Below are positions 2,304-61,117 of a stretch of DNA of 64,000 nucleotides, piece after piece (within the stretch, counting starts at the first letter, position 1; every line of letters begins with the position of its first letter). The position numbers and the translations under genes were made by a program. The notes beneath the pieces were generated by a model that was given only the letters and a program-made list of their open reading frames with translations, did not search any database and was not told where the DNA came from. The stretch spans positions 295,204 to 359,203 of the forward strand of contig OZ246405.1 of the NCBI GenBank assembly GCA_965231005.1, given 5' to 3'. Source of the stretch: an uncultured Gammaproteobacteria bacterium. Its GTDB lineage: Bacteria; Patescibacteriota; Patescibacteriia; Magasanikbacterales; UBA922.

Positions 2304-2432
2304 AAATTTAAAAGGCTTTAAATGCCGTAAAGGCCATAAAGGCAAAAAGGCTCCTGGTTTGAGGAGTTTTTTTGTTTCTCAATATTTATTTTTATGCTAT
2401 CATTCTAAAGTTCCACAACAAGGGGGTGATTC

Positions 2433-3275
2433 ATGGGGACAAGAATTCAGGCAAGACTCGTGGGTGCAAAGTTTTTCAGGTCAATGTCCTGGAAGCTGTT
2501 CAATGTTGGTCGCCCAGCGACTGGCATTTACGCGTTCTTACTGACGCTCATCAGCTTCAGTTTTGACGACGGGGCATCATGGTATGTCAGACTCGTAACA
2601 GCAGCTTGCTTTGCTGGCATCACCATGAGCATCATGGCGTTCAATGACTGGACTGACAGGTACCACGATCGAAAAAAAGGAAAGACATTCGTAAGCGAGA
2701 ATGAGGCCGCTGTGATCCGGTACTGGCTCCGACTCGCTGCAGTGACAGCTGCGCTTTTGCTCATGGTTGTGAGTTCGAGCCTTGCACTCGGTGCACTCTG
2801 CTCGCTGGTTTGGGCTGTTGGTCTTGCATACTCTTTCGTGCCTCACTGGTTTGTTACACAGAACGTCATGGTCGCACTTTGTTCTGGCTCTCCAGCGCTC
2901 TGCGGAATGGCGTACCATCAGCAATACTCAAAAGCTGCTGTGGCCACATTTCTCATCCTTGTGTTTTTAGTTCTTTGGAATGAAGTGCTCAAAGACATTG
3001 AGGATGCAGGGATTGACCTTGGGTACAAAGAAACGTTCCCGCTTCGCATAGGTCATGTGCGAAGTGTTGCCATGCTGATTGGTTTCCAGTCTATGCTCGC
3101 TATGATGTTTTTATTTCATCCAAACGAGTGGGTGGTTTCTGTCGGGATCGTCTCAATGCCGCTGCTTGCGTTTCAGCTTGCATACCTACTCCTCCATCCC
3201 GAACGTGTGAAGCGACCAAAGTTCATCATTCAACACACGATCACAGCTCTTTTGACCGTCCTTCTCTTTACGTAG
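2433..3275 (+). CDS. UbiA-family prenyltransferase-like integral membrane protein (GC-rich island gene)
   Basis: Multiple TM helices. First Asp-rich motif NDWTDRYHD (NDxxDxxxD); second D-rich motif DIEDAGID. Preceded by ACAAGGGGGTG at 2418-2428. GC content is visibly higher than in neighbouring genes. Confidence 0.55.
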   Translation: MGTRIQARLVGAKFFRSMSWKLFNVGRPATGIYAFLLTLISFSFDDGASWYVRLVTAACFAGITMSIMAFNDWTDRYHDRKKGKTFVSENEAAVIRYWLRLAAVTAALLLMVVSSSLALGALCSLVWAVGLAYSFVPHWFVTQNVMVALCSGSPALCGMAYHQQYSKAAVATFLILVFLVLWNEVLKDIEDAGIDLGYKETFPLRIGHVRSVAMLIGFQSMLAMMFLFHPNEWVVSVGIVSMPLLAFQLAYLLLHPERVKRPKFIIQHTITALLTVLLFT

Positions 3276-3380
3276 GTCTAGAGGCGATCGGTGGAACAAA
3301 AAAACCGTCCGTGAGCCTTGCAATGGTTCTCATATTGGGGAATATTGCAAGGAGACTACGGGCGGTTTTTGATTTTCAAA

Positions 3381-3881: not shown

Positions 3882-4005
3882 ATAAATACATTTTTTTGTG
3901 CGACCCCAGGATCGACACACAGAACAGTGGCTTGCGCCACATTGTACCGGAGGCATGCCTGTGGTTGTTCGTGCGTCGACCCTGGGTCGGTTGTTGGCGC
4001 CTTGC

Positions 4006-4107
4006 TCAGATGGTGAGGGTGAGCTCGCAGGAACGGTCGCCGTCGTGGGGCGTGCTCATGATGCAGAGCTGGTCGTCGGTCGGGATGTGCGTGCTGTGCT
4101 TGTGCAT
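4006..4107 (-). CDS. candidate small ORF (33 aa, MHKHSTHIPTDDQLCIMSTPHDGDRSCELTLTI) inside a GC-rich island
   Basis: ATG is preceded by AAGGAGA at a 7-nt spacing. It lies in a 270-bp GC-rich insert between two AT-rich genes. Could be spurious. Confidence 0.2.
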   Translation of the reverse strand: MHKHSTHIPTDDQLCIMSTPHDGDRSCELTLTI

Positions 4108-4183
4108 GGTGCCGTCTCCTTGGTGTGTGGCGATTGTGAAGGTAGTGTATCAAAGGAATAAGAGATCTTCAAACAAAAAAGCG

Positions 4184-7910: not shown

Positions 7911-8032
7911 TGCAAAATTCCTATTTTTTGGCTTAAAAAAGGTAAAAACAGCCCATTTGAGCTGCTTTATTCCTTCCCTGACCGCCGCAAGCACGAACGG
8001 TCAGGGGGTTGGCATGGTCATCTTGAAGATCC

Positions 8033-8236
8033 TCAACAGTGGTTGTCAGCAGAGTAGCTATTGCACTGGCTGCAGTAGAAGAGTGACTTGGGGCCTTGGT
8101 CGGTTTGGGTGGTCCTTACGGCCAAAACCCTGTTCTGGCAGCCAGATGTACCACATTCTCGCTTTCTGTTGAACTTTCTTGTGCGAAGCACATGCCGCAT
8201 GAGAACGATTCCTTCTTGTCCTTGGACGTCCTGCAT
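8033..8236 (-). CDS. small zinc-ribbon-like hypothetical protein (67 aa), GC-rich island gene
   Basis: GGAGGAGG Shine-Dalgarno 5 nt before the ATG. Contains CGTSGC...CSQC. Confidence 0.4.
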   Translation of the reverse strand: MQDVQGQEGIVLMRHVLRTRKFNRKRECGTSGCQNRVLAVRTTQTDQGPKSLFYCSQCNSYSADNHC

Positions 8237-8583
8237 GACCTCCTCCTATAGGTTGGAAACGCTGATTGTGCGTTTTGGTCCTATAGAAATATATAAGAGA
8301 TATTGAGGAGTGTCAACGTTTTTAAGGGTGATTTTTATATAAAAGGCTTATTTTAGCCAAATATTGCCATTTTCCTCTTGACAAAAGCCCTTTTTTGTGC
8401 TATACTGCTATGTCTACTTACAATGGAATATAGTACGAGAATCGTGGTATATTTCTGTAAGGGATGGATCTTTACAAACATCATCACACTAGTCGGATGG
8501 GTGATTGTAGTTAAGCTGAAAAAAGACTGATTACAACCACTCATTCGACAACAACGTTCGCAAACATAGCACAAGGAGCTCAC

Positions 8584-9066
8584 ATGCGATACATCTTTCT
8601 GGCCATCATCAGCGCGGCCTTCCTCATTCCCACCCACAACGCCGAGGCAGCGACCAAAGCGTCCGATGTCGCCAAGGTCATCAAGCTCATGACCAAGCCT
8701 GGTCGCACCAAGGGCGCGCTGTCCAAGAAGCGCTACAACAAGGGCAGCAGCTACCAGATCGTATTCCGGTCCAAGGGGATGCGCTACACGTTCTACTACT
8801 CGGGCAAGACCTTCGGCAACGGCATGAAGGTCGACGAGCCGTGGCTGGCAGTCTGGGTTCGCAAGGACGGTACTCGCGGTCTTCGACACCTCGATTCTTT
8901 CTCCGACCGTATGCTCGACGGCACCGTCAATGGTGGTGGCGCCAAGAACGGCAAGGAGAAGAACTTCGATGACCACCCACGTCGAGCTGAAGGCAAGCAG
9001 TACCGTGCGTACTGGCAGCGTCAGTACGATCTCGCGATCAAGCGTGCCCTGAAGCGACTTCGCTGA
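8584..9066 (+). CDS. secreted hypothetical protein (signal peptide), GC-rich island gene
   Basis: N-terminal signal peptide MRYIFLAIISAAFLIPTHNAEA. RBS ACAAGGAG. The antisense ORF 8353..9162 is judged spurious. Confidence 0.6.
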   Translation: MRYIFLAIISAAFLIPTHNAEAATKASDVAKVIKLMTKPGRTKGALSKKRYNKGSSYQIVFRSKGMRYTFYYSGKTFGNGMKVDEPWLAVWVRKDGTRGLRHLDSFSDRMLDGTVNGGGAKNGKEKNFDDHPRRAEGKQYRAYWQRQYDLAIKRALKRLR

Positions 9067-9516
9067 CGGACAACAGAAGGTGTGATGATGTGGTCGGAGT
9101 GATCTGACCAAAGATTCTTTGGGGCGTAGATGCAAGTCACGCCCCCACCTTCTTTTGTACATTTATAAAGTGTGCAGAAGAGGAAAAATATTTCAAGAAT
9201 ATTTTTTCTGTCGTTATGAGTGTGACACAATTTGATTTGAGTAATCTATTTACTTTTTAATAAGTCGAAAGAGTACTTCGTCACTTTGTTCCTCGCAATG
9301 ACAGTAGAGGCTCTTTACAAGTCGTCAATCAAGTGAAGTATTTGTTACACTATAATATAGTGTGTCGTATGCTTCACTTGAAAAAGTTGGAGTGCAATAT
9401 GCTTTGCGTGTACAGAAGATTCGTTCCATTTGGGGAACGCATCAAGATTCAAACGAATCGTTGTACGGGACGCTTAGCATCCTTCTGTCATGCGTGACAA
9501 GAGAAGGGAGAGAAAA

Positions 9517-10266
9517 ATGGCTACCACAACTTCAACCATCGAACCACCTGCCCCGCCCCGTTACCGTGAACCCACCTGGTGGGACAAATTCCGCGAGACG
9601 CCTCACTGGCTGCCGAACGGCACGTACCGTCAGGACGCGGCCATCTGGTTCGGCATGTTCGGCTCGTTCATCTTCCTCGCCGCACCGATCGTGGGTTATG
9701 TCCAGCCGACCTCGCATAACATCCTGGATGCGTACATGGCGGTCTGGACTTTCCTGACTTCGGAGTCCACCTGGATTGGTGCTGGCAAGCTCGTCGGTTT
9801 CCTCGGCGGTGGGACGATCGCAGTGTTTCTTGCGCTCGCCATTTTCTTCGGAAGCCTGTACCTCGCCTTTCGGTTCGTGCTAGAGCCGATCGGTCGGGGA
9901 TGGAACAGGCTCATGGCCTGGGATCATCGTCGGCTGTACGGCAAGTACGAAGACGAGATCGCAGAGCTCCGCAGGAAGCTGTGGGCGTCCAATGACAAGG
10001 TCGAGTCGCAGCTGACAGAGCTGGAAATGCGAGACCGGCAGGTCGAAAACCTTGAGCAAGCCCAGTCCGACCTGACCTGGTCAGTGGCATGTGTTGCTGC
10101 TGAGCTCAAGGCGGACGTGCGGAAGCGAGGAGCAGCGAACGCTCGTGTCAAGAAGGGCATTCGGAGGAAACTGATCCAGGGTCTGAAGCTTTCGATCCCA
10201 GAGCAGCGTCGACTGGACCACCTCCTGGCTCAGGCCAACCGCGTAGTCAACGGCGACATCGACTAG
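9517..10266 (+). CDS. hypothetical membrane protein with a C-terminal coiled coil, GC-rich island gene
   Basis: RBS AAGGGAGAG before the internal ATG (MATTTS). Two or three TM helices, then a coiled coil. Confidence 0.5.
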   Translation: MATTTSTIEPPAPPRYREPTWWDKFRETPHWLPNGTYRQDAAIWFGMFGSFIFLAAPIVGYVQPTSHNILDAYMAVWTFLTSESTWIGAGKLVGFLGGGTIAVFLALAIFFGSLYLAFRFVLEPIGRGWNRLMAWDHRRLYGKYEDEIAELRRKLWASNDKVESQLTELEMRDRQVENLEQAQSDLTWSVACVAAELKADVRKRGAANARVKKGIRRKLIQGLKLSIPEQRRLDHLLAQANRVVNGDID

Positions 10267-10543
10267 TACAACTCACTAACTCTTCGGAGTTTGGGCAAGA
10301 GTGATTGTACGCATGTTCAACAATTCACAAGGGGGGATCGAGACTACTTGCCCAGTCTCGATATCCCATCATGCTTCTCAATATTGAGAAACATGTAGGA
10401 CAAAAAATCTGTCTTTTACGACAGTTTTTTTGTTGCTATTTTTGATTTTGTTTAAAAAAGGCCTGTTTTTATTGATTTATTTGATCTAAATTATTAGGTA
10501 CTAGATAATAGTTATTAGTTATTATTTTTAATAGGGAGGGAAT

Positions 10544-14674: not shown

Positions 14675-14705
14675 AAAGATGAACGGCAGTCGATGACTGC
14701 CGTTT

Positions 14706-15344
14706 TTAACCTCCCTTTGTTTGTTCTCTGGACGCAGCCGTCGCGACTGCTTGTGCAACTGCTGCCACGCTTCGCTGGTTTGCTGCAGTAACATTGCTTC
14801 CTTTGTAGAGGTTGGAGACATGATGGTCAAGCTCTGTTGATCCCCAGATGACAACCACGTCAGCCCAGGCAATGTCTGCCCTTGCTTGTGTTCGGTTTCT
14901 CCGCTTTGTGCCGTGCACAAGCCGCAGATTGATATCGCTTCCAACAAAACCAGCCAAGGCTTTTCGACTGCTTGGAGAGCCACCGACTACACAGACTTGG
15001 CTCCATCCAACATTGCGACAAGCTTGAATCATTTTGCGTACAGCTCGTTGGTTTGATGATCCTCCACAGATCTGGCAGAAATGCTGCTTTGCAGCGCGCG
15101 CTACAAACCGTTCTCCCTTGACCACACCTGCCTCAGTTCTGCAATCCCCTCGATCGCAGACGAGCAATACGAATTCTGCAAGAAGTTTCTTTGCCGTTTC
15201 GATTTTTTTTGTACTGATTCGTTTCTTGCTAGGTCTACTAACCCCAGCATCTTCGAGAATCAACTCAAAGATCTCCATGTCACCGGCATACCCAAGCGAC
15301 AAAAGGAGATCAGCTTTTGACACATCGGGATTTCCCTTAGTCAT
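14706..15344 (-). CDS. hypothetical protein (possibly DUF2325-like), GC-rich island gene
   Basis: AAGGAGG Shine-Dalgarno 5 nt upstream of the ATG. C-terminal VVVIWGSTELDHH. GC content is visibly higher than in the neighbours. Confidence 0.45.
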   Translation of the reverse strand: MTKGNPDVSKADLLLSLGYAGDMEIFELILEDAGVSRPSKKRISTKKIETAKKLLAEFVLLVCDRGDCRTEAGVVKGERFVARAAKQHFCQICGGSSNQRAVRKMIQACRNVGWSQVCVVGGSPSSRKALAGFVGSDINLRLVHGTKRRNRTQARADIAWADVVVIWGSTELDHHVSNLYKGSNVTAANQRSVAAVAQAVATAASREQTKGG

Positions 15345-15448
15345 GTCTTCCTCCTTATGAAAGGGTTTTGCCGAAAGAGTATTTTACGGTATTCCACACC
15401 ATTTGTCAATGGTTGGATATGAAGTTTTGCTAATTTTTTAATAAAAAA

Positions 15449-15470: not shown

Positions 15471-15474
15471 TTCG

Positions 15475-15548
15475 TCGGAGTGAAAGGACTTGAACCTTCG
15501 ACCCCTGCGTCCCAAACGCAGTGCTCTAGCCAACTGAGCTACACTCCG
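15475..15548 (-). tRNA. tRNA-Pro (UGG)
   Basis: Cloverleaf. Acceptor CGGAGTG/CACTCCG. Anticodon loop TTTGGGA. T-loop TTCAAGT. Confidence 0.85.
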
Positions 15549-15589
15549 GTATAGGCTGTTATTATTATTTTTGTTTTTATATTGGATTT

Positions 15590-15653
15590 CAGATTGTGCT
15601 CTAGCCTCAGCCAAAGGCTGATCCGCCTCTGGCGGAAACTGAGCTACACTCCG
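15590..15653 (-). pseudogene. tRNA-Pro 5'-end fragment (CGGAGTGTAGCTCAG) fused to a hairpin-rich insert
   Basis: The first 15 nt are identical to the tRNA-Pro 5' end. Hairpins CCGCC-agag-GCGG and CAGCC-tttg-GCTG follow. There is no anticodon, T-arm or 3' acceptor. Confidence 0.35.
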
Positions 15654-15689
15654 ATGTGTTTTTTCACATTGTGAAGTGTGCCAGTTTAT

Positions 15690-15775
15690 CCCAACTGTCC
15701 CGAAGCCTCGACTTTGTCGAGGGTACGGGACTCCGACTGAACGCTTTGCGTTCACGTCGGAGAGCTACACTCCGA
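15690..15775 (-). pseudogene. second tRNA-Pro 5'-end fragment (CGGAGTGTAGCTC) fused to a strongly structured insert
   Basis: Contains a 13-bp stem TCCGACGTGAACGC/GCGTTCAGTCGGA and a GTCCCG...CGGGAC helix. Confidence 0.3.
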
Positions 15776-15838
15776 TGCTTCATCAATGCTTTGCAGCGCA
15801 AGCGAGTGTGCCTGCACTTCGAAGCCTTGGCGAAGAAG

Positions 15839-15910
15839 TGCCGAGGGTGAGAATCGAACTCACGACACGAGGCTCTTCAGGCCCCTGCTCTACCACTGAG
15901 CTACCTCGGC
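15839..15910 (-). tRNA. tRNA-Phe (GAA)
   Basis: GCCGAGGTAGCTCAGTGGTAGAGC...CTGAAGA...GTTCGATTC...CCTCGGCA. Confidence 0.9.
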
Positions 15911-15951
15911 GTTATACAATAATCGTCCATCGAAAGATGGACGATGTTTGT

Positions 15952-16027
15952 TGGTGGACCGAACAGGACTCGAACCCGCCACCTCCGCAGTGCAAATGCG
16001 GCGCTCTACCAGATGAGCTATCGGCCC
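15952..16027 (-). tRNA. tRNA-Ala (UGC), CCA encoded
   Basis: GGGCCGATAGCTCA...anticodon loop TTTGCAC...GGTTCGAGTCC...TCGGTCCACCA. Confidence 0.9.
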
Positions 16028-18090: not shown

Positions 18091-18346
18091 TTCTGCTCAA
18101 ACCTCTGCACACCTACGGCTGAACAAAAAACAAAACACCTCGACAGAATCGGGGTGTTTTGTACTGCGCCATACAGTATGGATTGATTTAACATTAATCC
18201 ACGAGTTATTAACTCGATGGGAAAAGTATAGCATACCTTATTAAAAATGGCAAAATAAGGATATCCCCAAGTGGTTTTAGGTGAAAGATATTGTTTGTTA
18301 TACTCAAAAACAGCCCCCATCATCCACCAAATCATAGGAGCACAAC

Positions 18347-18850
18347 ATGCCAGAAGCAGCTGATATCCCTTTGGAAGTCCATCCAGATGGAAGACTCGGT
18401 CCGCCCTTTCCTTTACCCGAAGAGTGCGATACTCCAGCCTGTCGAGACGCCCGCCAGGAGTTGGGGAGAATTCGTAAAAAGATCACAGATCTTTGCACTC
18501 AACAGAGCGATGCAAGGCAGAAAGAAAAAGATGCTGATGACGAGATGGTCTTTGCAGCGTCTTTGGTCCCTATCCTCATGATTGCTGCGTTAGCGCTCGC
18601 GTTCATTCCTTTTGTCGGGATTTGGCTTGCAGGGCTTGCACTCGCTGCAGCATTCGAAGCTGGTCGAAGAGCAAACAAAGCTCGACAACGGAGAGACAGG
18701 TATCGGAGACTGATTCAAGATCTGTATCGCATGATCGATGATGAGCAAGCAAAGTGGGTTCGTGCGATTATTCGATTTCACAGAGAATGTGCAGAACCCT
18801 GTCGGGTTGGCATTGATGAAGACATGCCAAGCTGTCCGTCGTACGTGTAA
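18347..18850 (+). CDS. hypothetical membrane protein, GC-rich island gene
   Basis: RBS TAGGAGCA. One central TM helix; charged, Arg-rich tails. Confidence 0.5.
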   Translation: MPEAADIPLEVHPDGRLGPPFPLPEECDTPACRDARQELGRIRKKITDLCTQQSDARQKEKDADDEMVFAASLVPILMIAALALAFIPFVGIWLAGLALAAAFEAGRRANKARQRRDRYRRLIQDLYRMIDDEQAKWVRAIIRFHRECAEPCRVGIDEDMPSCPSYV

Positions 18851-19044
18851 CAAGGAGACATCAGTTCCACATCAACGCCGGCTTATTGAGTCAATCAATA
18901 GCCGGTTTTATTTTAGATAGGTTTCAATTTTGACATTATCAAAAAAACAACGTATATTTCCTATAGTAAATACTAGCGTCTAATCTCAAAAGGGGCTTTT
19001 TTTTACAAACTTTTAGATTTGTCATTTTTTTTGCGAAATGATAT

Positions 19045-22795: not shown

Positions 22796-22942
22796 TTAAT
22801 TTATTTCAATCAAAAAAACACCATATTATGATGTTTTTTTGTCTTTGGGTAATCATATAGATTACCCACTCCTATTACCCGATATAGCTCGGGCCAGGCC
22901 TCCGCAGTTGCGGGATTGTTGCCAGCTGCTACTGGCTCGTTG

Positions 22943-23167
22943 TCAGCACCATGACTCGCGCTGCAGCTCATGGCCGTAGGCGACTTGCACGCGGTGCTTG
23001 ATGTCCTCCTCGCAGTCCTTGTGGTCGCAGCAGCGGATCGCGATCGTGGAGGAACGGTTCTCGGGGAAGGCCTCACGCACCGACGGCCTGCCGCATTCGT
23101 TGATGCAGTCATCGCCCTGCCAGCTTGCTTTGGAGCGAAAAGCCACCTCGATCTTGTTATCGCTCAT
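22943..23167 (-). CDS. small Cys-rich hypothetical protein (74 aa), GC-rich island gene
   Basis: GGAG 7 nt before the ATG. A TTGACA promoter lies upstream on the minus strand. Motifs CINECGRP...CCDHKDC. Confidence 0.4.
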   Translation of the reverse strand: MSDNKIEVAFRSKASWQGDDCINECGRPSVREAFPENRSSTIAIRCCDHKDCEEDIKHRVQVAYGHELQRESWC

Positions 23168-23343
23168 GATGTTCTCCAGATGAGTGTACCGGTGTTGTTC
23201 ACTGGCACGGTTTGGGTTGATCTGTTGCCAAGCGTAGCGGAAAAAGAGGTGTATGTCAATAATGAAATAAAAAAAAACAGGCTATTCACCTGTTTTTCTT
23301 TGAGCTACACCTGGCCTAAAGGCCAGGCAAGGACTCTTTTTTG

Positions 23344-23395
23344 TGGAGCGGCAGACCGGACTTGAACCTGCCTGCCGGCAGGCAGGCCGGCGACA
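23344..23395 (-). repeat. element B copy 1: tRNA-Gly-like 3' end (T-arm plus acceptor plus CCA) fused to a perfect 20-bp palindrome
   Basis: The reverse complement reads GGTTCAAGTCCGGTCTGCCGCTCCA, which is one mismatch from the tRNA-Gly(GCC) acceptor arm. It is preceded by the palindrome CCTGCCTGCCGGCAGGCAGG at 23367-23386. Confidence 0.5.
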
Positions 23396-23405
23396 ACAAA
23401 ACAAA

Positions 23406-23430
23406 AAGGTCAGCTATTTGCTGACCTTTT
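23406..23430 (-). terminator. bidirectional terminator after tRNA-Gly(GCC)
   Basis: GGTCAGC-tatt-GCTGACC flanked by A- and T-runs. Confidence 0.5.
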
Positions 23431-23439
23431 CGCTTTTAG

Positions 23440-23511
<72 letters not shown>

Positions 23512-23546
23512 TTGTTTCCTTCACCCATTTGGTAGGCGAAGCCTAG

Positions 23547-23620
23547 TTGCGGGGGCCGGATTCGAACCGGCGACCTTCGGGTTATGAGCCCGACGAGCTG
23601 CCTGACTGCTCTACCCCGCT
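23547..23620 (-). tRNA. initiator tRNA-fMet (CAU)
   Basis: Near-identical to E. coli tRNAfMet: AGCGGGGTAGAGCAGTCAGG...CTCATAACCCGAAGGTCGCCGGTTCGAATCC. The 1:72 position is an A:A mismatch. Confidence 0.85.
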
Positions 23621-23660: not shown

Positions 23661-23735
23661 GATAATCGCCTTAGTTGACAGGAGTGTTCATTATTGTTAG
23701 ACTGAATATTCTTTCCAGTACAAGGGGGTGGAATT

Positions 23736-24143
23736 ATGAGTGTAACTCAGACAGAACAAAGGTCAATGATCAAGCATCACGTCCTTGTCGCCGTGTTGTC
23801 GGTCTGGTCGGCATGCTTTGGCGTTGCTATGGCAGTGCTGCAATTCGAGAATGAGGAGTGGGCAAGACTTACCTGGGCAGTCATAATCATAATGGTTATC
23901 CTGTCATTTACAGTTAGTCGGTTGAGTCAAGGTGCGCTTTTCAGGCTCACCGTCTATACGTTCATCTTCGAGCTGAGTCTGCTGCCAGGACTTTTTATCC
24001 CTTCGTGGTTCGATATTCTTGCAACTTCCGCCGAGGGAGGAACAGTAAGAACGGTCGGCTTTATTGGGGGGATCTTTGGCATTGCCTCGCTGATGTTCGT
24101 ACTCATTATTTTCGTGAACAATTTGAAAAAAATGATCGAGTGA
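23736..24143 (+). CDS. hypothetical integral membrane protein (135 aa), GC-rich island gene
   Basis: Preceded by ACAAGGGGGTG at 23720-23730 and a TTGACA promoter. Three or four TM helices. Confidence 0.5.
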   Translation: MSVTQTEQRSMIKHHVLVAVLSVWSACFGVAMAVLQFENEEWARLTWAVIIIMVILSFTVSRLSQGALFRLTVYTFIFELSLLPGLFIPSWFDILATSAEGGTVRTVGFIGGIFGIASLMFVLIIFVNNLKKMIE

Positions 24144-24267
24144 GATAGTTCAGGAACTGGAAAGAGCGACCCGACGGTGTCAACCAACCGTCACGCTCAA
24201 AAGAATCTGTCTCTGACAGATTTTTTTGATTGACCATTATAAAAAAAATTGATACGGTTAATATATT

Positions 24268-27443: not shown

Positions 27444-27602
27444 AAATGTCAGATTAAGTAGCTTAGGATTTTTTATTTCAAGATTTACTAAACTATACCT
27501 GGTTTTTATAAGCTTTGCAAAAAAAAAGTAAAAAAATTCACCTGCCCATGCCATTGCTCAGAGAGCGGCACGGGCAGGCGGTCGTTTGCATCTGATGATC
27601 AG

Positions 27603-27800
27603 TCAGTTGGCGGGCAGGGCGTTGCAGGCCTTCACCTCCTGGAGTCCGATCGGCGTCTTGGCGGTCGTGTTCCAGCCACTGGCCAGCAAGACCGTGCCGT
27701 TCGGCAGCCTGATGCACCGCGGAATCGTCCCATCCTTGCTGTGTCCTTCCAGATCGAGTCTGTACTTGATTCCTTCCCACGTGATCGTGATCGTTTCCAT
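27603..27800 (-). CDS. small hypothetical protein (65 aa), GC-rich island gene
   Basis: GGAGGT 7 nt before the ATG. The composition is beta-rich (METITITWEGIKYRLDLEGH...). Confidence 0.4.
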   Translation of the reverse strand: METITITWEGIKYRLDLEGHSKDGTIPRCIRLPNGTVLLASGWNTTAKTPIGLQEVKACNALPAN

Positions 27801-27923
27801 TCGAACACCTCCAATGTGTTGGCTCGACTATATATTAGAAACAAGATTTTGTCAATGTTGAAACATGAAAATAACCCAGCGCATTGACTGGGCTATTTTT
27901 CCTTTATTTGAGGTTAGGAAGAG

Positions 27924-31102: not shown

Positions 31103-31281
31103 ATGAGGATTTACATTATTATATAACTACATTATACATGGTAGCTAAAAAAACAACGCTCTACAAGGCGTTGTTTCGTTTACGCGGTGGCTAGGGGAGG
31201 ACTTTAGGACTGTGGAACCTTGAACTATTGCATTTTTTTATGTACAATTCTATTTGAATCCTTTTCTCACTTGGAGGTGTC

Positions 31282-31593
31282 ATGAACAAGAGTGAAAAGA
31301 TTGCAAAACTTGCACGACATGAGATTGGGTGGTGGAAAGCCCATCACAGAAGGCAAAAAGATCTATTTGTTCTCGAGATGACCTATCTTTATGTCTTGCA
31401 GTTTGGCATCGATGAGGATGCTGCGAGACAAGCAGTACTTTTCCGTGCTGAGGCGGCAGACTATCACGATGAGGCTGAGAAGTACGAGGACGCGGGGGAC
31501 CAGTCGCAGGCAGACGTCTATTGGCGCAGAGCTGAAGAAAGTCTTCTCAAGCACTTCGCAATTTTGGAGGAACACAACACCGACAGCGAATAG
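31282..31593 (+). CDS. hypothetical protein, GC-richer island gene
   Basis: RBS GGAGGTG 4 nt before the ATG. A terminator follows at 31651-31681. Confidence 0.5.
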   Translation: MNKSEKIAKLARHEIGWWKAHHRRQKDLFVLEMTYLYVLQFGIDEDAARQAVLFRAEAADYHDEAEKYEDAGDQSQADVYWRRAEESLLKHFAILEEHNTDSE

Positions 31594-31812
31594 TCGGAAT
31601 ACCCGAACGGTGCTCACGGCAAGTTCGGGAGCATCAAAAGAACATCTTAGAAAGGTGTTTTTTTGATATAAAAAACACCCCGACCAGGCAGGCGCCCCCT
31701 CCTTCGCTCATCTCTATGCTCGCTACGCTTCGCATCGGTGAGCTTCGGCGGGCAGGCGCAATCGAACTAGAGTAAAACAAAGACTCCCCTTAGGGGAGTT
31801 TTTATTTTGGAG

Positions 31813-31918
31813 CGTGCCACGAGATGGCGCCCATTGGAATATTGTCGCACGTGGCCACGTAAAATGACCTTCGGTCATCACGTGGCTCACTCAAAATGGC
31901 TCGCGCCATTTTTCGTGG
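31813..31918 (+). ncRNA. conserved structured element A, copy 2
   Basis: Same architecture as 781-887. The inner hairpin is ATGACC-TTCG-GGTCAT, against GGCAC-TTCG-TGCC in copy 1, so the changes are compensatory. It directly follows a terminator at 31770-31800. Confidence 0.35.
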
Positions 31919-31950
31919 AGCGGACCTGCCTGCCGGCAGGCAGGCGACCC
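31916..31950 (-). repeat. element B copy 2: tRNA-Gly(UCC) acceptor-3'-end-plus-CCA-like fragment fused to the same 20-bp palindrome
   Basis: The reverse complement reads CCTGCCTGCCGGCAGGCAGG-TCCGCTCCA. GTCCGCT matches the 3' acceptor strand of the adjacent tRNA-Gly(UCC). The palindrome lies at 31925-31944. Confidence 0.5.
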
Positions 31951-32024
31951 TGCCTACGCTTTCAGCTCCGGCAGGTAAACTCCATCTCAGCAAGTTCAAT
32001 TCCTTGCCCGTCAGGCCCAAACTA

Positions 32025-32052
32025 AAAATCGCCCACCCTTTCGGGTGAACGA
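32025..32052 (-). terminator. terminator of tRNA-Gly(UCC)
   Basis: Minus strand reads CACCC-gaaa-GGGTG, then GGCGATTTTT. Confidence 0.5.
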
Positions 32053-32062
32053 TTTTCAGTAG

Positions 32063-32133
32063 AGCGGACGACCGGAATCGAACCGGCGTCATTGGCTTGG
32101 AAGGCCAAGGTAATACCATTATACCACGTCCGC
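32063..32133 (-). tRNA. tRNA-Gly (UCC)
   Basis: GCGGACGTGGTATAATGGTA...anticodon loop CTTCCAA...GGTTCGATTCC...CGTCCGCT. Confidence 0.9.
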
Positions 32134-34194: not shown

Positions 34195-34406
34195 ATTTTG
34201 ATTTCTTGATAGAGTATTACCGTATGAAATACAGACATCAAAACAACCGATTTTTCTTCTTTTACTTTCACCCCCGTTTGAGTGGTCTTGTATAGTGCGC
34301 AAAAAAGTATTATCATCAACCACTCAAAGGTGGTTGTTTTTTTTCGGGATCAATGTTGACGGGAGCATACATTGGTTCCGAATAATTCGGGCCTAAAGGG
34401 GGTTTC

Positions 34407-35714
34407 ATGAACAAGACACTGTACATTCACAACGCACGACGAGCACTTCCTTGGTTTACGTTTCCAGGGATTCATTTTTACCCAGATCGCACGCTGTCTC
34501 TCGACGAGGGGCAAACGGTTCTCAGTACTGGTCTCGAAGATGGAGTGGCTCGCGGTCAGTTTGCCTACTACCGAAGCATTGGGATCGGTCCAGATCACAT
34601 CATCGAGGTGCCTGCGCATCGTTTTGATGGTGATTTGTACCAGGCAGTTCTCAACACGCCAGGTGCTGTCCGGCATGTGCGGCGGCTCGTGTTTGACCAG
34701 GGATTCAAGATTCAGTTTTTCTGTACAAGAATGCCAGTCATTGGCGAGGCAGCAGATCTGACCACTGGTTTCGAAGAAAGCTTCATTCGTGATCTTGGTA
34801 TGGTCTGGGACGAGCATGTTCTGTCCTTGCCAAGCCAGATCGCTGACATAGGGAACAGCAAAGCTGCTGTTCGTCGCATCGCAACAAGCGACTTGAACGG
34901 AAGCAGTCAATTTCTGCCACACAAGATCTCCAAGACAGGCATCGGCCTTGTCCAGGCTGCGTGGGAGATGAAAAAAGAACATGGTCGCATCATCGTCAAG
35001 CTGCCAAACTGGGCTTCTTGCCTGGGCATGGTTGCCAATCCTTCTCCGGCTGAACTCGCTCGGTTCATGTGGCATCACCGTTCACGACTCTCTGACGTCA
35101 TTGTCGAGCCGTGGATGGGTGCAGACCATGTTGCCATGTCAGTCCTCGTCCGATACGAAAACGGATACGAGGTTGATCGATGGCATACTGAGCAGCTCTG
35201 TGAGTCCCATGAAGATGGAACGATCTCGCTGAACGGAAATGTGCTTTCGCCCAACCTCGAGAACGTGACAAAAGAAGACATCGACTGGCTGAACAAGTCG
35301 GCCGATGCAATGAACGCTCGAATTCTGGCTCGGAAGTCAAACCTGACTGGACTCATCTGCTGGGACGGGCTTCGGGATTCAGACGGTGAGCGATGGCTGC
35401 TCGAAGGAAACGCTCGCGAGACCTTTACCAGCTATGTCCGTTCAATGCAGCGGGCGCTTTCAAGACAGATTGGGTACATCCCGACCTGCCTGCTCTACAA
35501 GGTGCACCCAAAGAACATCCTGTCGTTCAGTGAGATCAAAAGACGGCTCGACTCTGATTTGTATGGTCCGATCAGGCGATGCGGTGTGATTCCAATGATG
35601 ATTCGTTGCCAGCTCGGTGCAGGCCAGCCTTACTTCTACTGCGTTGCAGTGGGCAAGTCAGTCCAGCATGCAAGTGCCATCATGGGCCGTGCAAAGATCG
35701 TGCTCGAAAAGTGA
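34407..35714 (+). CDS. hypothetical protein, possibly ATP-grasp-like; GC-rich island gene
   Basis: RBS AAGGGGG. The C-terminal ERWLLEGNAR resembles the ATP-grasp E-x-N motif. No other recognisable motif. Confidence 0.4.
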   Translation: MNKTLYIHNARRALPWFTFPGIHFYPDRTLSLDEGQTVLSTGLEDGVARGQFAYYRSIGIGPDHIIEVPAHRFDGDLYQAVLNTPGAVRHVRRLVFDQGFKIQFFCTRMPVIGEAADLTTGFEESFIRDLGMVWDEHVLSLPSQIADIGNSKAAVRRIATSDLNGSSQFLPHKISKTGIGLVQAAWEMKKEHGRIIVKLPNWASCLGMVANPSPAELARFMWHHRSRLSDVIVEPWMGADHVAMSVLVRYENGYEVDRWHTEQLCESHEDGTISLNGNVLSPNLENVTKEDIDWLNKSADAMNARILARKSNLTGLICWDGLRDSDGERWLLEGNARETFTSYVRSMQRALSRQIGYIPTCLLYKVHPKNILSFSEIKRRLDSDLYGPIRRCGVIPMMIRCQLGAGQPYFYCVAVGKSVQHASAIMGRAKIVLEK

Positions 35715-35743
35715 GTACAGAAACCTACAAGGGGGTGAGTCGG

Positions 35744-35767
35744 ATGTCTTCATGGCGTCCGGCATAA
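35744..35767 (+). CDS. 7-codon mini-ORF (MSSWRPA) behind a copy of the ACAAGGGGGTG motif
   Basis: Motif at 35727-35737, ATG at 35744, stop TAA. It lies immediately upstream of epmA. Confidence 0.15.
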   Translation: MSSWRPA

Positions 35768-35801
35768 CCTTATTACCACAATAATTTGTGATAATAAGAT
35801 T

Positions 35802-37503: not shown

Positions 37504-37600
37504 TCAGGTTGATTTTTAAAAAACCGCTTAACAGCGGTTTTTAATATTGATTTAATACCGAAAGTCTGCTAGTGTGGTTTTACAGAACCTGGAGGTCACT

Positions 37601-38653
37601 ATGCGAACGTTCTTTTCGTGCACACTACTTTTTTCGATTCTCATCTTGAGTGGCTGTAGCGGCCCAACCTACAGTTCAACACCTGCTGCCAATTCCATGA
37701 ATGCGAGCGTTGTCAAAAGGACGATGAACCCGGATTTCAAGACAGAGATTCCAGTTCAGAATCTGCTTGGCCAGCTCGCAGTTCAGAGTGGGCAGCACTG
37801 GGTGGTGTCCACTCGCTTTCATCATCTTCTCCTGAATCCACCACAATTCGGACTTGCTGACAAGTGGGGAGCTTTTCTGAAGTTTCCCATTCACTCTCTC
37901 CGAGGCAAACGAATTCGGTCTGCTCGGCTGGTAGTTGCCAAGATCGGAGGATGGAACAGTGAAAACTCCCATTCATTTGTTGTCCAACAGCTATCAAGAG
38001 CACTCGAAGTGCAGAACTTTTCGAGGAATGAGAATCGGATTTGTACTGCAAATGTGCAAGGGCTCATTGATCCCAAAAAGGTCTTCACCGAAAAATGGAC
38101 AACTCAGAAAGAAAGTGGACCAAAAGAGATGAAGTATCCTCATTTGCTGGAATGCAAGATCGGTCCTGGAAGCAAGGTCCCGCCGACGTGTCGGGATCTG
38201 ATCGGAACGTTTGGGAACCTTTACGCCCTCATGAACTGCCTGACCAGGATTGGTCATCCACCACAGCAGGTTTACTTCAATGGCGCGATCGGATCAGTAG
38301 ACGTGTCAGCCTCACTGAACGCAGCTCTTACGAGCAACAAGCGTGAAGTGGTATTTTGGTTCAAGCAATTGGGCGGGGGAGCCTTCGTGCATGATACTTA
38401 TACTGCTTTTCAAGGCTACGGTTCTCCAATCGGACCAAAGCTGATCGTTGATGCTGTTGCTGATCCTTCTGCCTCAGATTCACTTGGTGAGCCAAGAGAC
38501 CATCGTACTCGGCCAACAGCTTATGGCTGTACCAAGGATACAGACTGCAAGGGTGATCGGATTTGCGAAAACGGAAAGTGTGTCAGTCCTGAGCGCCCAA
38601 AGAAAAAGAAGAAAAGGAAAAAGCGTCGTCGCAAGCGCAAGAAGTCCAAGTAA
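37601..38653 (+). CDS. secreted lipoprotein with a C-terminal Cys-rich module and a poly-Lys/Arg tail; GC-rich island gene
   Basis: RBS GGAGGT. Lipobox ILILSGCSG. The C-terminus reads CTKDTDCKGDRICENGKCVSPERPKKKKKRKKRRRKRKKSK. Confidence 0.6.
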   Translation: MRTFFSCTLLFSILILSGCSGPTYSSTPAANSMNASVVKRTMNPDFKTEIPVQNLLGQLAVQSGQHWVVSTRFHHLLLNPPQFGLADKWGAFLKFPIHSLRGKRIRSARLVVAKIGGWNSENSHSFVVQQLSRALEVQNFSRNENRICTANVQGLIDPKKVFTEKWTTQKESGPKEMKYPHLLECKIGPGSKVPPTCRDLIGTFGNLYALMNCLTRIGHPPQQVYFNGAIGSVDVSASLNAALTSNKREVVFWFKQLGGGAFVHDTYTAFQGYGSPIGPKLIVDAVADPSASDSLGEPRDHRTRPTAYGCTKDTDCKGDRICENGKCVSPERPKKKKKRKKRRRKRKKSK

Positions 38654-38722
38654 GCACGGTTCTGAAATAAGCCCACAAACAACAAGGAGAAGAAAAAACC
38701 GCCACTTTCGAGTAGGCGGTTT

Positions 38723-39880
38723 CTATTTTTTGTCATGTTCTCTGCCGTAATACCAGGCTGCTAATCCAGTAGTCAGAGGAACTGCCAAGACCAGTGCTAT
38801 GCTCCCTACCAACATGCGTACAACTTCTTCGATTACGATTTCACTGTTCAAGACCAGCCATGTTGGTCTTTCATATACTTCAAACAACAGTAGTAACGGT
38901 AAGGAAGTTCCAGTGTAAGCAAGAATTAAAGTGTTTACCAAAGATATAATATGTTCCCGACCAACTGATGAGCCTCTTAAAAATAATTCACGCACACTAA
39001 AAGCAGGATTTGCTTTGTGTAGCTCTTCAACCACTGCGGCTTGTGCTGTTGTTATATCATCAAGCACACCTAGTGTTCCAATAATAATACCGGCCAGCAA
39101 TATTCCTCGCAGATTAAATATTTTTTCTGGTGCAGCTTGAAGATAAAAAGCTTCTTCACTTCCAAGACCAAACAAATGCATAAGATCAGTAACAAACATT
39201 GCTAAAAGTAAGGCAACAAAAATCGTGATGAGCGTACTTATAAATGCAATTGTTGTGCGAGAACGAAATCCATGGGCAATAAATATTGACGCTGTAGCAA
39301 TAAAAAGAGTTCCAACAAGACCAATGATGAGTGTGTTTTGTCCATCAATAATGCGAGGTACAATAAACCAAATAATCACTGCAAAACTGATAAGTAGACC
39401 AATCAGTGCTCGGACGCCCGCCCATCTCGTGAACAGTATGACCAGAATCAAGAATAATCCAAAAAGGAGCCAGAGTGAGTTAAGGCGGTATACATCACTA
39501 ATATAATAAGTGACATCTTCATTGAAAGCACTTTTGCCAACAACAACGCGATCTGATGTGGTCAGCCGCGCACTTCCTGGGCTGCCGGCTGGTATACTGA
39601 ATTCTAATTCTAGTTCTGTTCCTTTGTCTGGTCCATTTTCGATTTTGACTGGTACAGATTGAATAAGTGTTGTTTGTCCAAATTCTGTAATCATTTCTTC
39701 GGTTGGTTCTCCAATAACAGATGCACGATAAAATTCATCCTGCTGTATGGTCGGGGTTTCAAAGTCAACAGTATCTGGCACGTCACTGGCTTGCGCAGGT
39801 TGTCCTAAAGCAATACAAAAAAATGCAAGTAGTATTGGCATCATTTTTGTGAGAAATGATTTGTATCTTTGTATAGTCAT
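38723..39880 (-). CDS. YibE/F family membrane protein
   Basis: N-terminal signal peptide, a periplasmic domain, then about 8 TM helices. Confidence 0.55.
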   Translation of the reverse strand: MTIQRYKSFLTKMMPILLAFFCIALGQPAQASDVPDTVDFETPTIQQDEFYRASVIGEPTEEMITEFGQTTLIQSVPVKIENGPDKGTELELEFSIPAGSPGSARLTTSDRVVVGKSAFNEDVTYYISDVYRLNSLWLLFGLFLILVILFTRWAGVRALIGLLISFAVIIWFIVPRIIDGQNTLIIGLVGTLFIATASIFIAHGFRSRTTIAFISTLITIFVALLLAMFVTDLMHLFGLGSEEAFYLQAAPEKIFNLRGILLAGIIIGTLGVLDDITTAQAAVVEELHKANPAFSVRELFLRGSSVGREHIISLVNTLILAYTGTSLPLLLLFEVYERPTWLVLNSEIVIEEVVRMLVGSIALVLAVPLTTGLAAWYYGREHDKK

Positions 39881-45224: not shown

Positions 45225-45480
45225 ATTTTTTTATTTTAGCATGTTTTAGCGTAATAAACTAATTTTTAATATTTTTTTAAAGGGTGTTTGCTATTGTAAA
45301 AAGGCTATATTAAGCTAAAAAAAAGAATATCATTGACAATAGGTTATTTTTTTGCTAATTTTAGCTGTTTCGTGTATTCAATCACGGCTGTTATTTTGTG
45401 ATTTTTTTAAGTCATTAAGTGATAGTCGTGGTAGGTAATCACGACATCTTGATCTTTGAAAACTAAACCAGGGGGTCTAA

Positions 45481-47883: not shown

Positions 47884-47960
47884 AGGAGGAAAGGAGTCTA
47901 AAACCCACGCAAACACTGAGAGATCAGTGTGCGCGTGGGGTTTTTTTTTGGGATAGTAAC

Positions 47961-54498: not shown

Positions 54499-54527
54499 TT
54501 GACAAAGCTAAAAAACTCTGCTACTGT
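54499..54527 (+). promoter_or_regulatory. sigma-70-like promoter of the small GC-rich gene
   Basis: TTGACA, a 17-nt spacer, then TACTGT. It is followed by ACAAGGGGGTG at 54542-54552. Confidence 0.4.
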
Positions 54528-54555
54528 GTTTTTAATCAACAACAAGGGGGTGGCA

Positions 54556-54825
54556 ATGTTGCCGACGCAAATCGAGGTTTCGTATTCAGGTCAAGCATGG
54601 AAGCGCTTCATCAGTCCGCGGATGATCCACGATGATCATCGTGCGTTCTTCGAACAGGACGATCTGACCGGCAAGGTCATTGTCTGCGGGAGCAAACGGA
54701 TGACCGTGACAGAAGACACGCAGAACGGAAACACACTCGTTCCCGAGCGAACGCTGGTGTGCAAGCCGCTTCAGAACGGTGTGCCGCCGATCACATTTTT
54801 TCTGTCTCCGGGCGAGGATGAGTAG
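54556..54825 (+). CDS. small hypothetical protein (89 aa), GC-rich island gene
   Basis: The ATG lies 4 nt after ACAAGGGGGTG. No recognisable domain. Confidence 0.45.
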   Translation: MLPTQIEVSYSGQAWKRFISPRMIHDDHRAFFEQDDLTGKVIVCGSKRMTVTEDTQNGNTLVPERTLVCKPLQNGVPPITFFLSPGEDE

Positions 54826-54928
54826 GATCGATTTCTCCAACAACAAGGAGGCGCTGTCTCAGAAGTACTGGGACGGCGCAACACGAAAAACCCTCATATG
54901 TATGGGGTTTTTTTGTTTTAGATATAGT

Positions 54929-60943: not shown

Positions 60944-60972
60944 ATTGACAATGAGTGTATTTTTTGTTATTG
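60944..60972 (+). promoter_or_regulatory. sigma-70-like promoter followed by a ~145-nt structured leader
   Basis: TTGACA, a 17-nt spacer, then TATTGT. The leader contains an 11-bp helix AAGATGGTGGGG/CCCCCATCTTT. Confidence 0.35.
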
Positions 60973-61117
60973 TAGGTCATTGTTCTTTATATTTTGTCGG
61001 AGTATTTCCACAAAGATGGTGGGGAATTACTGGGTTTGCGTCCTGTGGTTTTCCCCCATCTTTACACACAACAGAGCAGAATGGGTGGGGATGTACTGCT
61101 TTGTGAGGTACTTTATT

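Follow-up and report, generated by a model that had tools for sequence, protein, structure and literature searches.

The 64,000-nucleotide stretch of contig OZ246405.1 analysed here (hereafter the window) is a mosaic in which 16 GC-rich islands, each with one credible open reading frame (ORF), lie between the genes of an AT-rich bacterial chromosome. We consider it probable (at roughly 0.72) that these islands are genes acquired horizontally from GC-richer bacteria that use Shine-Dalgarno (SD) sequences, that they lie in intergenic spacers of an AT-rich, SD-poor chromosome of 1.23 Mb, and that each was reduced to a minimal autonomous unit. The evidence points to dense horizontal gene capture and not to a new kind of genetic element. 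Three features are unusual: the density of the islands in a reduced genome, the GC-rich-into-AT-rich direction, and the coincidence of the foreign composition with an SD signal that is rare in the lineage. The foreign origin appears well supported by the distinct composition and translation signals of the islands, their absence from syntenic sites, the lack of homologs in 80 related loci and the few or no homologs in large protein collections. The original prediction had proposed a common foreign origin; the foreign part of that claim stands, while a single common origin is not shown, since the GC content at third codon positions (GC3) spans 0.42-0.94 and the islands have neither paralogy nor a shared repeat or end sequence.

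In a 300-nt profile, the GC content of the window alternates between ~30-40% and 48-60%. A change-point scan gave 16 GC-rich segments, amounting to 20.9% of the window; 15 of them contain the 16 ORF islands (segment 22801-24000 has two islands and two tRNA genes) and the sixteenth, 15571-16080, is a tRNA cluster. About 20 single-gene islands had been announced from the letters alone; all of the 16 intervals then listed are GC-rich with one credible ORF each, so that the count is 16. Most of the ORFs listed also stand, but the credible ones are 4006-4107 (minus strand) in 3900-4160 and 8033-8236 (minus strand) in 7950-8300. Three tRNA clusters (15474-16027, 23439-23620 and 32062-32133) and two further segments (7205-7640 and 31600-32060) are GC-rich without coding; seven tRNA genes at four places account for the GC peaks at 15.5-16.0, 23.4-23.6 and 32.1 kb.

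The islands differ from the backbone, as expected, in the GC profile and the codon adaptation index (CAI), for which checks had been proposed, and also in GC3. GC3 is 0.42-0.94 in the islands vs 0.15-0.39 in the backbone (41-48 genes; Mann-Whitney P = 6e-9), and the CAI, trained on the backbone, is 0.23-0.49 vs 0.54-0.72 with no overlap (Mann-Whitney U = 0). By GC3 and CAI, the islands show the deviant composition and codon usage that mark genomic islands. Compared with the backbone, the island proteins are enriched in GARP residues (P = 1e-3) and depleted in FYMINK residues (P = 1e-6), and no paralogy was found among the 16. For comparison, 80 related loci (named here by L numbers, as are the other contigs fetched; some are 0.6-1.25 Mb long) were collected from one metagenome scan with the transketolase as query; these relatives are distant, with a transketolase identity of ~60-67%. 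The GC-rich share, 20.9% in the window and 15% in the upstream 11.6 kb of the same genome, is 0-3% in most relatives, partly owing to tRNA genes, and reaches at most ~10% (L064). What is exceptional here is thus the density of GC-rich segments.

The 16 islands are listed below, the promoters and terminators being consensus matches.

Island 1, 2376..3370, plus strand: weak promoter-like site 2376-2403; SD ACAAGGGGGTG 2418-2428; coding sequence (CDS) 2433-3275, 280 aa, UbiA-family prenyltransferase, GC3 0.54; long hairpin and T-run to ~3365.
Island 2, 3898..4125, minus strand: CDS 4006-4107, 33 aa, GC3 0.94, with AAGGAG 9 nt before the ATG at 4107; a GC-rich hairpin region, 3900-3995, adjoins the start of the backbone gene 3381-3881.
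Island 3, 7945..8316, minus strand: TTGACA-17-TATATT 8316-8288; SD AGGAGGAGG; CDS 8033-8236, 67 aa, Cys-rich; terminator 7968-7945.
Island 4, 8378..9150, plus strand: TTGACA-17-TATACT 8378-8406; leader of ~170 nt with intermediate GC; SD ACAAGGAG at 8571; CDS 8584-9066, 160 aa, signal peptide, GC3 0.78.
Island 5, 9466..10345, plus strand: CDS 9517-10266, 249 aa, transmembrane (TM) helices and coiled coil, GC3 0.74; orphan SD-like ACAAGGGGGG at 10327, with no start codon after it.
Island 6, 14682..15409, minus strand: immediately downstream of tRNA-Pro; TTGACA-17-TAAAAT 15409-15381; SD AAGGAGG; CDS 14706-15344, 212-aa orphan; terminator 14704-14682.
Island 7, 18311..18910, plus strand: CDS 18347-18850, 167 aa, 2 TM helices, weak SLATT-like match; ACAAGGAG overlaps the stop at 18850.
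Island 8, 22843..23260, minus strand: downstream of tRNA-Gly(GCC) and a pseudo-tRNA 3′ fragment; TTGACA-17-TACGCT; CDS 22943-23167, 74 aa, Cys-rich, GC3 0.83.
Island 9, 23675..24230, plus strand: promoter 23675-23703; SD ACAAGGGGGTG 23720-23730; CDS 23736-24143, 135 aa, 4 TM helices; terminator hairpin.
Island 10, 27540..27855, minus strand: TTGACA-17-TATAGT 27855-27827; SD GGAGGTG; CDS 27603-27800, 65 aa, GC3 0.82; hairpin and T-run.
Island 11, 31260..31680, plus strand: SD GGAGGTG; CDS 31282-31593, 103 aa, acidic, GC3 0.53.
Island 12, 34350..35770, plus strand: SD AAAGGGGG; CDS 34407-35714, 435 aa, probable divergent ATP-grasp ligase; on its 3′ side an orphan SD ACAAGGGGGTG 35727-35737, then a 7-codon stub 35743-35766.
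Island 13, 37560..38730, plus strand: SD GGAGGT; CDS 37601-38653, 350-aa lipoprotein, lipobox ILSGC, Cys-rich, Lys-rich tail; on its 3′ side an orphan ACAAGGAG at 38682, then a terminator.
Island 14, 45333..47950, plus strand: promoter-like TTGACA-17-TAATTT at 45333; SD AGGGGGT; CDS 45481-47883, 800-aa lipoprotein; terminator.
Island 15, 54499..54915, plus strand: TTGACA-17-TACTGT 54499-54527; SD ACAAGGGGGTG 54542-54552; CDS 54556-54825, 89 aa; on its 3′ side an orphan SD CAACAACAAGGAGG 54838-54851; terminator 54892-54907.
Island 16, 60945..61900, plus strand: promoter-like site at 60945; CDS 61118-61822, 234-aa orphan, GC3 0.62; perfect 13-bp palindromic hairpin 61846-61877.

The usual order of a unit is the terminator of the preceding backbone gene, an AT-rich promoter, a short leader with the SD, the ORF, and a GC-rich hairpin with a T-run. 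As predicted, most islands (11 of 16) are on the plus strand. Most were also expected to have their own promoter and a strong SD; the SD is found in all 16, and a strict promoter, TTGA[CT][AG]-N16-18-TAnnnT, upstream of nine (vs 5 of 41 backbone genes), a perfect TTGACA with a 17-nt spacer being present in nine islands. Maximum-likelihood change-points place the GC-rich 5′ edge typically 10-50 nt before the ATG, just past the −10 box, and the 3′ edge at the end of the terminator hairpin; island 4, with its long leader, departs from the usual 5′ edge.

The alternatives weighed (ALTERNATIVES) were an assembly chimera, a native second class, RNA genes and degraded integrative elements. That the mosaic is an assembly or binning artefact, joining reads of a GC-rich and an AT-rich organism, is scarcely conceivable. 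The source is a metagenome, and the ENA and Logan contigs end near some island edges, at 2338, 4014, 4047 and 61850, as an artefact would have it. However, window positions 1-4047 and 51946-64000 are identical base for base to contigs of the PRJEB17505 metagenome (run ERR2281801), a 59-kb MEGAHIT contig would span 14 islands by its coordinates (its last 11.5 kb were compared), Logan contigs cross several junctions, which independent assemblies reproduce, and all of the pieces compared are 100% identical to the window. Moreover, every island fits exactly between backbone genes, none of which is disrupted, and is framed by an AT-rich promoter and a terminator. We did not count the contig ends as evidence of island-free alleles either, since fragmentation affects the whole Logan assembly and the stop at 61850 coincides with the perfect palindromic hairpin of island 16.

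The sharpest result of the analysis is that translation starts fall into two classes. SD strength was measured as the duplex energy with CACCUCCUU (the 16S rRNA 3′ end of the host lies outside the window), at a threshold of −6 kcal/mol. This threshold is reached by 15 of the 16 islands vs 4 of 41 backbone genes (Fisher P = 3e-9), and by eye the 33-codon ORF at 4006-4107 is SD-led as well, which makes 16 of 16. The 40-nt upstream regions show GGAGG/GGGGG-type SDs at the islands and AT-rich stretches at most backbone genes. Many backbone starts, in the window and in loci L042-L121, have a TATAAT-like box 5-15 nt ahead of the ATG, which suggests that leaderless or very short-leader mRNAs may be common in the lineage. 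The relatives are SD-poor too: in 42 related loci of at least 10 kb, 28 of 611 ordinary (non-GC-rich) genes pass −6 kcal/mol, and the GC-rich relatives L075, L085 and L118 are likewise SD-poor. GC-rich, SD-led small genes were found in the relative L064 and in L127, L129 and L130; as an exception, one GC-rich gene of L054 is leaderless. The SD-less backbone genes are like those of SD-poor bacterial lineages such as the Bacteroidota; the window differs from these in having a uniformly SD-led foreign class within the same genome. Peregrinibacteria, the group to which the host is compared below, frequently lack bS21, and some Parcubacteria lack the anti-SD motif (PMC9297842). In the literature searched, we found no description of an SD-led foreign class inside an SD-poor genome, nor any paper that deals with the sequencing project, with GC islands of Peregrinibacteria or with how this lineage uses SDs.

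Five genes had been said to share an upstream motif. The motif, ACAAGGGGGTG, is enriched, with 4 exact copies vs 0.6 expected at up to one mismatch (0 of 100 shuffles reach 4), and three of its copies precede the ATG of an island gene, at 4 nt (2418, gene 2433), 5 nt (23720, gene 23736) and 3 nt (54542, gene 54556). The fourth, at 35727, lies 13 nt past the stop of the ATP-grasp gene and is followed only by the 7-codon ORF, and the variant at 10327 trails the gene of island 5 with no downstream start codon. Aligning the four copies revealed no similarity extending beyond ACAAGGGGGTG. The motif pairs with the canonical 16S 3′ end, including one G-U pair, and is therefore a strong SD site. We read it as an extended SD, ACAAGGRG(G), i.e. 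a translation signal typical of SD-using donors, and not as a repeat or a mobile-element signature. The core ACAAGGRG occurs 13 times in the window vs 2.6 expected, with nine copies at island edges: four are island SDs and five lie just past island stops (10327, 18850, 35727, 38682 and 54843). Among the remaining copies, one is the SD of the native comM and three are within backbone genes. The core has chance frequency in the related loci (3.0 per 128 kb) and is seen again on the mosaic contigs L127 and L130, at GC-rich genes. Hence the enrichment of the motif proposed as a unifying signal is borne out, while the signal itself is an ordinary extended SD. Additionally, an SD-like site is found within 75 nt past the stop in 6 of 16 islands vs 3 of 43 backbone genes (P = 0.009); in windows inside the island ORFs the figure is 14 of 125.

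The islands had also been expected to be absent from the syntenic regions of relatives. In L044, L054, L057, L059, L064, L071 and L080 the conserved order is the homolog of gene 56430, UppS, the small and large subunits of ribonucleotide reductase (RNR), RuvB, three small genes (48832, 48272 and 47961), transketolase, EF-P and EpmA. The junction occupied by island 14 measures 2.7 kb here vs a spacer of ~110-230 nt in five relatives. Between RNR-small and UppS, the gap is 85-162 nt in three relatives, and here island 15 and an AT-rich phosphatase gene lie between the two. EF-P is 13-182 nt from transketolase in L049 and L057, and here island 13 comes right after EF-P. Absence from the syntenic site was thus found for islands 13, 14 and 15, and tblastn of all 16 island proteins against the 80 related loci gave zero matches. 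At the island-14 (transketolase) junction, L054 has a gene for a 205-aa GC-rich membrane protein and L064 two GC-rich SD-led genes, all unrelated to the gene of the window; this junction is a hot spot reused by different GC-rich genes.

These results largely refute the proposal of a second, native class of genes, inherited vertically and held at high GC by, e.g., selection or biased gene conversion, which we regard as very unlikely. GC-rich SD-led small genes do recur in related or similar genomes (L064, L127, L129 and L130), and the UbiA family remains GC-rich in all four genomes that have it, at 41-50% identity, as a native class would. Nevertheless, no island homolog is present in the 80 loci, three island sites are empty spacers there, the UbiA copies are non-syntenic, the amino-acid usage is foreign, and the GC-rich relatives of the lineage are SD-poor.

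The products had been described as mostly membrane, secreted-lipoprotein or small Cys-rich proteins, which is roughly the case except for two enzymes, a UbiA prenyltransferase and an ATP-grasp ligase. The island 1 protein matches PF01040 (UbiA) over residues 40-265 with 47.8 bits (cut-off 34.2), and its matches to NCBIfam UbiA subfamilies are far under their cut-offs. It has three homologs of 41-50% identity, each in a GC-rich gene (GC3 0.54-0.70) of a mosaic contig with an AT-richer, SD-less backbone. The contigs come from three datasets: L127 belongs to the project of the window, L129 to a JGI sample in which transketolase relatives were found as well, and L130 to a third one. An SD is clear in L127 (AGGAGG) and L130 (AGGGAGA) but not obvious in L129; in L130, the gene adjoins a tRNA with duplicated end fragments. 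Since UbiA homologs lie in GC-rich genes of several mosaic contigs without synteny, there is a pool of GC-rich genes found at differing places in several such genomes.

For the ATP-grasp protein (island 12), the word-index search returned only itself, and 39 homologs, all of at most 44% identity, were found among 1.84 billion representatives. In the PDB, a profile built from 20 of these homologs finds PurD, Ddl, PGM1 and an ATP-grasp peptide ligase (E = 8e-8 to 1e-3), and the protein itself matches no Pfam family at threshold; by profile similarity, it is probably a divergent ATP-grasp ligase. The nearest homolog (44%) is on contig L122 (JBFOMN010006519.1), which is uniformly 45% GC and has mostly unannotated neighbours with the exception of NUDIX, NT5C, PHP and SpoU genes. 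A 'tgctatNgtgaggcacatc ATGAGACATTTC' gene start is present twice on the same contig, in nearly identical form.

The products of islands 13 and 14 are lipoproteins with a lipobox, that of island 14 with at least 8 Cys-rich Dicty_CTDC repeats, and the other products are small membrane, secreted, Cys-rich or acidic proteins for which no family was assigned in Pfam, NCBIfam, PHROGs or PADLOC (one marginal match only in the latter). The word-index search found no homolog of the 249-aa protein (island 5) but itself, and the AlphaFold models of two orphans, of 212 aa (island 6) and 234 aa (island 16), are of low confidence (pLDDT 47 and 48). A phage origin had been suggested as well and is not borne out: there were no PHROG matches for the 10 proteins tried, no relatives in IMG/VR scans for the 249-aa protein, the UbiA family and the ATP-grasp family, and no tblastn match for one orphan against phages; another orphan had none against plasmids.

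The recipient is a bacterial chromosome. The proteins of the window are found as well on a 1,232,850-bp NCBI contig, and since dnaA, dnaN, rpmH, rnpA and yidD lie just upstream, the window is close to the origin. The backbone consists of ordinary cellular genes, namely an M23/LysM peptidase, ComM, LspA, a DksA-type protein, RadC, carA, carB, EF-P, EpmA, a Znu ABC transporter, Fur, transketolase, RuvB, class I RNR, UppS, a pseudouridine synthase, an AdoHcy hydrolase and toxin-antitoxin pairs. Backbone stop codons are TAA 36, TAG 7 and TGA 5, i.e. the standard code, and an alternative genetic code was thereby ruled out. The nearest CarB proteins among GTDB species representatives are those of a Candidatus Peregrinibacteria metagenome-assembled genome (MAG), with 65% identity, and of two unclassified 'bacterium' MAGs; the host would therefore be Peregrinibacteria-like, within the Candidate Phyla Radiation (CPR), a phylum label resting on one protein, CarB. 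Beyond a few CPR MAGs (64-65%), the best matches of CarB (19946-22795; loci L006-L035) are many Micrarchaeota (DPANN archaea), at 46-56% identity, which hints at a possible exchange of carB between CPR and DPANN.

In the mechanism proposed for horizontal capture, operon pieces from the donors would have been inserted by illegitimate recombination, or by site-specific integration near tRNA genes, and then trimmed by deletion to a functional core. An AT-rich sigma-70-type promoter, often a perfect TTGACA with a 17-nt spacer, would start the transcript 10-50 nt, occasionally ~200 nt, before the ORF; a strong SD (GGAGG/GGGGG, often ACAAGGRGG) 3-9 nt ahead of the ATG would recruit the ribosome. The ORF would retain the codon and amino-acid usage of the donor, and the GC-rich hairpin with its T-run would terminate the transcript of the unit, which the terminator of the upstream backbone gene would insulate on the other side. 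The orphan SDs past island stops, one of them with a 7-codon stub, make it probable that several islands are what trimming left of donor operons; such a stub is the remainder expected if a polycistronic fragment from an SD-using donor was cut inside its next gene. The cargo (prenyltransferase, ATP-grasp ligase, lipoproteins and small membrane or Cys-rich proteins) would mainly remodel the cell envelope.

Several points weigh against horizontal acquisition as formulated here. No donor was found, and no homolog of more than 50% identity for the three island proteins searched, so that either the transfers cannot be shown to be recent or the donors have not been sampled. In AT content the promoters resemble the recipient, and they may be native, or have evolved in place, instead of transferred. 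The small ORFs (33-103 aa) are predicted, as is the use of island SDs by the host ribosome, the 16S rRNA 3′ end lying beyond the window. Synteny covered 3 of 16 islands, in relatives too distant (transketolase ~60-67%) to show exact junctions. Flank-vs-flank comparison revealed no flanking direct repeats (longest match, mean 8.9 nt vs 8.4 nt in the null distribution), Pfam scans of backbone and island proteins found no integrase or transposase in the 64-kb window, and the islands have no shared ends. The lack of repeats, shared ends and a recombinase in the window argues against a dedicated cassette system and fits illegitimate insertion and trimming.

In a narrower form, the islands would be an ongoing, lineage-specific capture from one GC-rich SD-using partner, possibly the physical host of a presumed episymbiont, with ACAAGGRGG as the signature of the donor; operon fragments would enter, e.g. 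by DNA uptake, and then be trimmed to single units. We hold this version to be unlikely. If it were true, the islands could identify the host organism and would show how a ribosome that normally starts without an SD handles SD-led foreign messages.

Another alternative, and one that we consider possible but rather doubtful, is that the islands are the last remnants of larger site-specific elements (tRNA-targeting islands, degraded prophages or integrative and conjugative elements), eroded to one gene each. It bears above all on the tRNA loci, which are the following.

15474..16027, minus strand: cluster of tRNA-Ala, tRNA-Phe and tRNA-Pro; GC peak, no gene island.
23345..23620, minus strand: tRNA-Met and tRNA-Gly(GCC), then a tRNA-Gly-like 3′ fragment (T-arm, acceptor, CCA) at 23345-23370, abutting the palindrome CCTGCCTGCCGGCAGGCAGG.
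31905..32133, minus strand: tRNA-Gly(TCC), then a second copy of the palindrome fused to the acceptor-3′-end-like GGTCCGCTCCA, 31905-31944.

Four of the 16 islands adjoin tRNA genes, and pseudo-tRNA fragments stand beside GC-rich filler. The Phe-Pro spacer (15549-15837) is 290 nt long vs 75 nt in the relative L042, is filled with GC-rich sequence and contains two partial tRNA-Pro 5′ ends, of 17 nt (15637-15653) and 13 nt (15762-15774). The Gly(TCC)-Met-Gly(GCC) cluster, tight and beside EpmA in relatives, is here split by 8.4 kb and lies 3.7 kb from EpmA, and the block that splits this ancestral cluster has toxin-antitoxin modules and a ParB-like gene. The L130 UbiA homolog, beside a tRNA with duplicated end fragments, is in keeping with such remnants, and the orphan SDs and the 7-codon stub show that longer fragments were truncated. 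On the other hand, 12 of the 16 islands are away from tRNA genes, and the pseudo-tRNA fragments (15637-15653, 15762-15774, 23345-23370 and 31905-31925) bracket no whole island. Within the 64 kb there is no integrase or recombinase and there are no flanking direct repeats, the 10 proteins tried have no PHROG match, and the three queries have no relatives in viral contigs. Degraded integrative elements may therefore explain the islands beside tRNA genes, but for the other twelve this is not obvious.

At the same loci, one of the partial tRNA-Pro 5′ copies has a 32-nt insertion in the D-loop region. The splitting block, 23621-32061, is mostly AT-rich and backbone-like, with LysE, an M23 peptidase, YafQ/RelE-like and ParE toxin modules, a ParB-like protein and three islands. 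The perfect palindrome CCTGCCTGCCGGCAGGCAGG occurs twice (23345-23400 and 31905-31950), each time joined to a tRNA acceptor-3′-end-like sequence (…CCGCTCCA) just downstream of a tRNA-Gly; it was not found in any of 126 loci searched and may be what is left of an element that targeted tRNA-Gly, or a small repeat derived from a tRNA.

RNA genes are reportedly GC-rich islands in AT-rich genomes, according to Klein, Misulovin and Eddy (2002), and the tRNA clusters of the window, perhaps also segment 7205-7640, are alike in this respect; the difference is that the 16 islands are protein-coding. That the GC-rich segments in general are structured non-coding RNA genes is extremely unlikely. It is true of three GC peaks, the tRNA clusters, and plausible for 7205-7640 (minus strand), which has both a promoter and a terminator and folds with a z-score of −8.4. 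By contrast, the 16 islands have ORFs of 33-800 aa with GC3 above the GC content at second codon positions, a correctly spaced SD, and signal peptides or lipoboxes; three island proteins have Pfam or PDB-profile matches, two have protein homologs, and Rfam gave only tRNAs in the window, with no credible family for the non-coding GC-rich pieces. An RNA-mediated (retro-copy) origin, suggested by GC boundaries near the transcript start and the terminator end, was considered and rejected as unlikely: island 4 has a long AT-rich leader, and orphan SDs and a truncated stub stand ahead of terminators.

The segment 7205-7640 (minus strand) is a transcript-like unit of ~436 nt with a near-perfect promoter, TTGACA-17-TATTAT and an upstream TG (7670-7642), and a terminator (7227-7210). 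Its minimum free energy is −142.6 kcal/mol (z = −8.4 vs shuffled sequence). Rfam gave nothing credible for it, nhmmer gave nothing in the fetched loci, and it may be an undescribed structured RNA.

Returning to horizontal acquisition, the islands can be compared with known systems. The amelioration model of Lawrence and Ochman reportedly describes compositionally atypical horizontally transferred genes and genomic islands. The likeness lies in the atypical GC, codon and amino-acid usage, the absence from syntenic sites of relatives, the position of some islands beside tRNA genes, and a GC3 range that fits different ages or donors. In contrast to genomic islands of 10-200 kb, the units here are of one gene, without mobility genes or flanking repeats in the window, and their density is extreme for a reduced 1.2-Mb genome (16 units in 64 kb, ~20%). 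Foreign DNA is more often AT-rich, whereas here it is GC-rich in an AT-rich host and marked also by a differing translation-initiation signal.

Phage morons, as Hendrix and colleagues are said to have described them, are single ORFs with their own promoter and terminator and deviant GC, lying between two genes. The anatomy is the same here, precisely intergenic units with promoter, ORF, intrinsic terminator and deviant GC (by consensus matches, with a strict promoter in 9 of 16), but the setting is a chromosome of housekeeping genes (the dnaA region, RNR, EF-P, transketolase, carAB) and not a prophage. Integron cassettes have an attC site, depend on an integron integrase and stand in arrays. 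These cassettes and isolated attC cassettes share with the islands single-ORF units, foreign composition and mostly unassigned function; here, however, the repeat search found no conserved 3′ element or repeat family (no dedicated attC covariance model was run), and the units have their own promoters and 3′ hairpins with T-runs like terminators. An integron-cassette origin was not supported, given dispersed units with no shared 3′ element and no integron integrase in the window. Terminal inverted repeats and target-site duplications, as expected of a miniature inverted-repeat transposable element or insertion sequence with cargo, were not found by repeat search and flank comparison.

Reduced genomes of the CPR type are usually described as streamlined by loss, and here about one fifth of 64 kb near the origin would be foreign stand-alone genes. 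The mostly envelope or secreted cargo, absent at the sites of relatives, would imply a high turnover of accessory surface functions, relevant to the attachment to partners and their exploitation. The split between SD-less native and SD-led foreign genes would provide a simple sequence marker of recent acquisitions in this lineage and a natural test case for translation initiation without SD, and the identification of donors might reveal the host of an uncultured symbiont.

Two further observations concern the backbone. The comM gene (4184-5706, minus strand) consists of two overlapping ORFs with a frameshift at a poly-A run near 5200, which could be a sequencing error, a phase-variable tract or a pseudogene. 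Finally, AT-rich arrays of a TAATAACTATTAACTA-like repeat occur in both orientations at 5716-5754, 6138-6167, 10481-10533, 57509-57529 and 58791-58889. They flank a 23S-rRNA-IVP/Avd-like gene (5750-6130) and are also found upstream of comM, of an LTD/OB-fold gene and of gene 57563-58789, and an identical GGAGGGAAT-ATG start region follows two of them.

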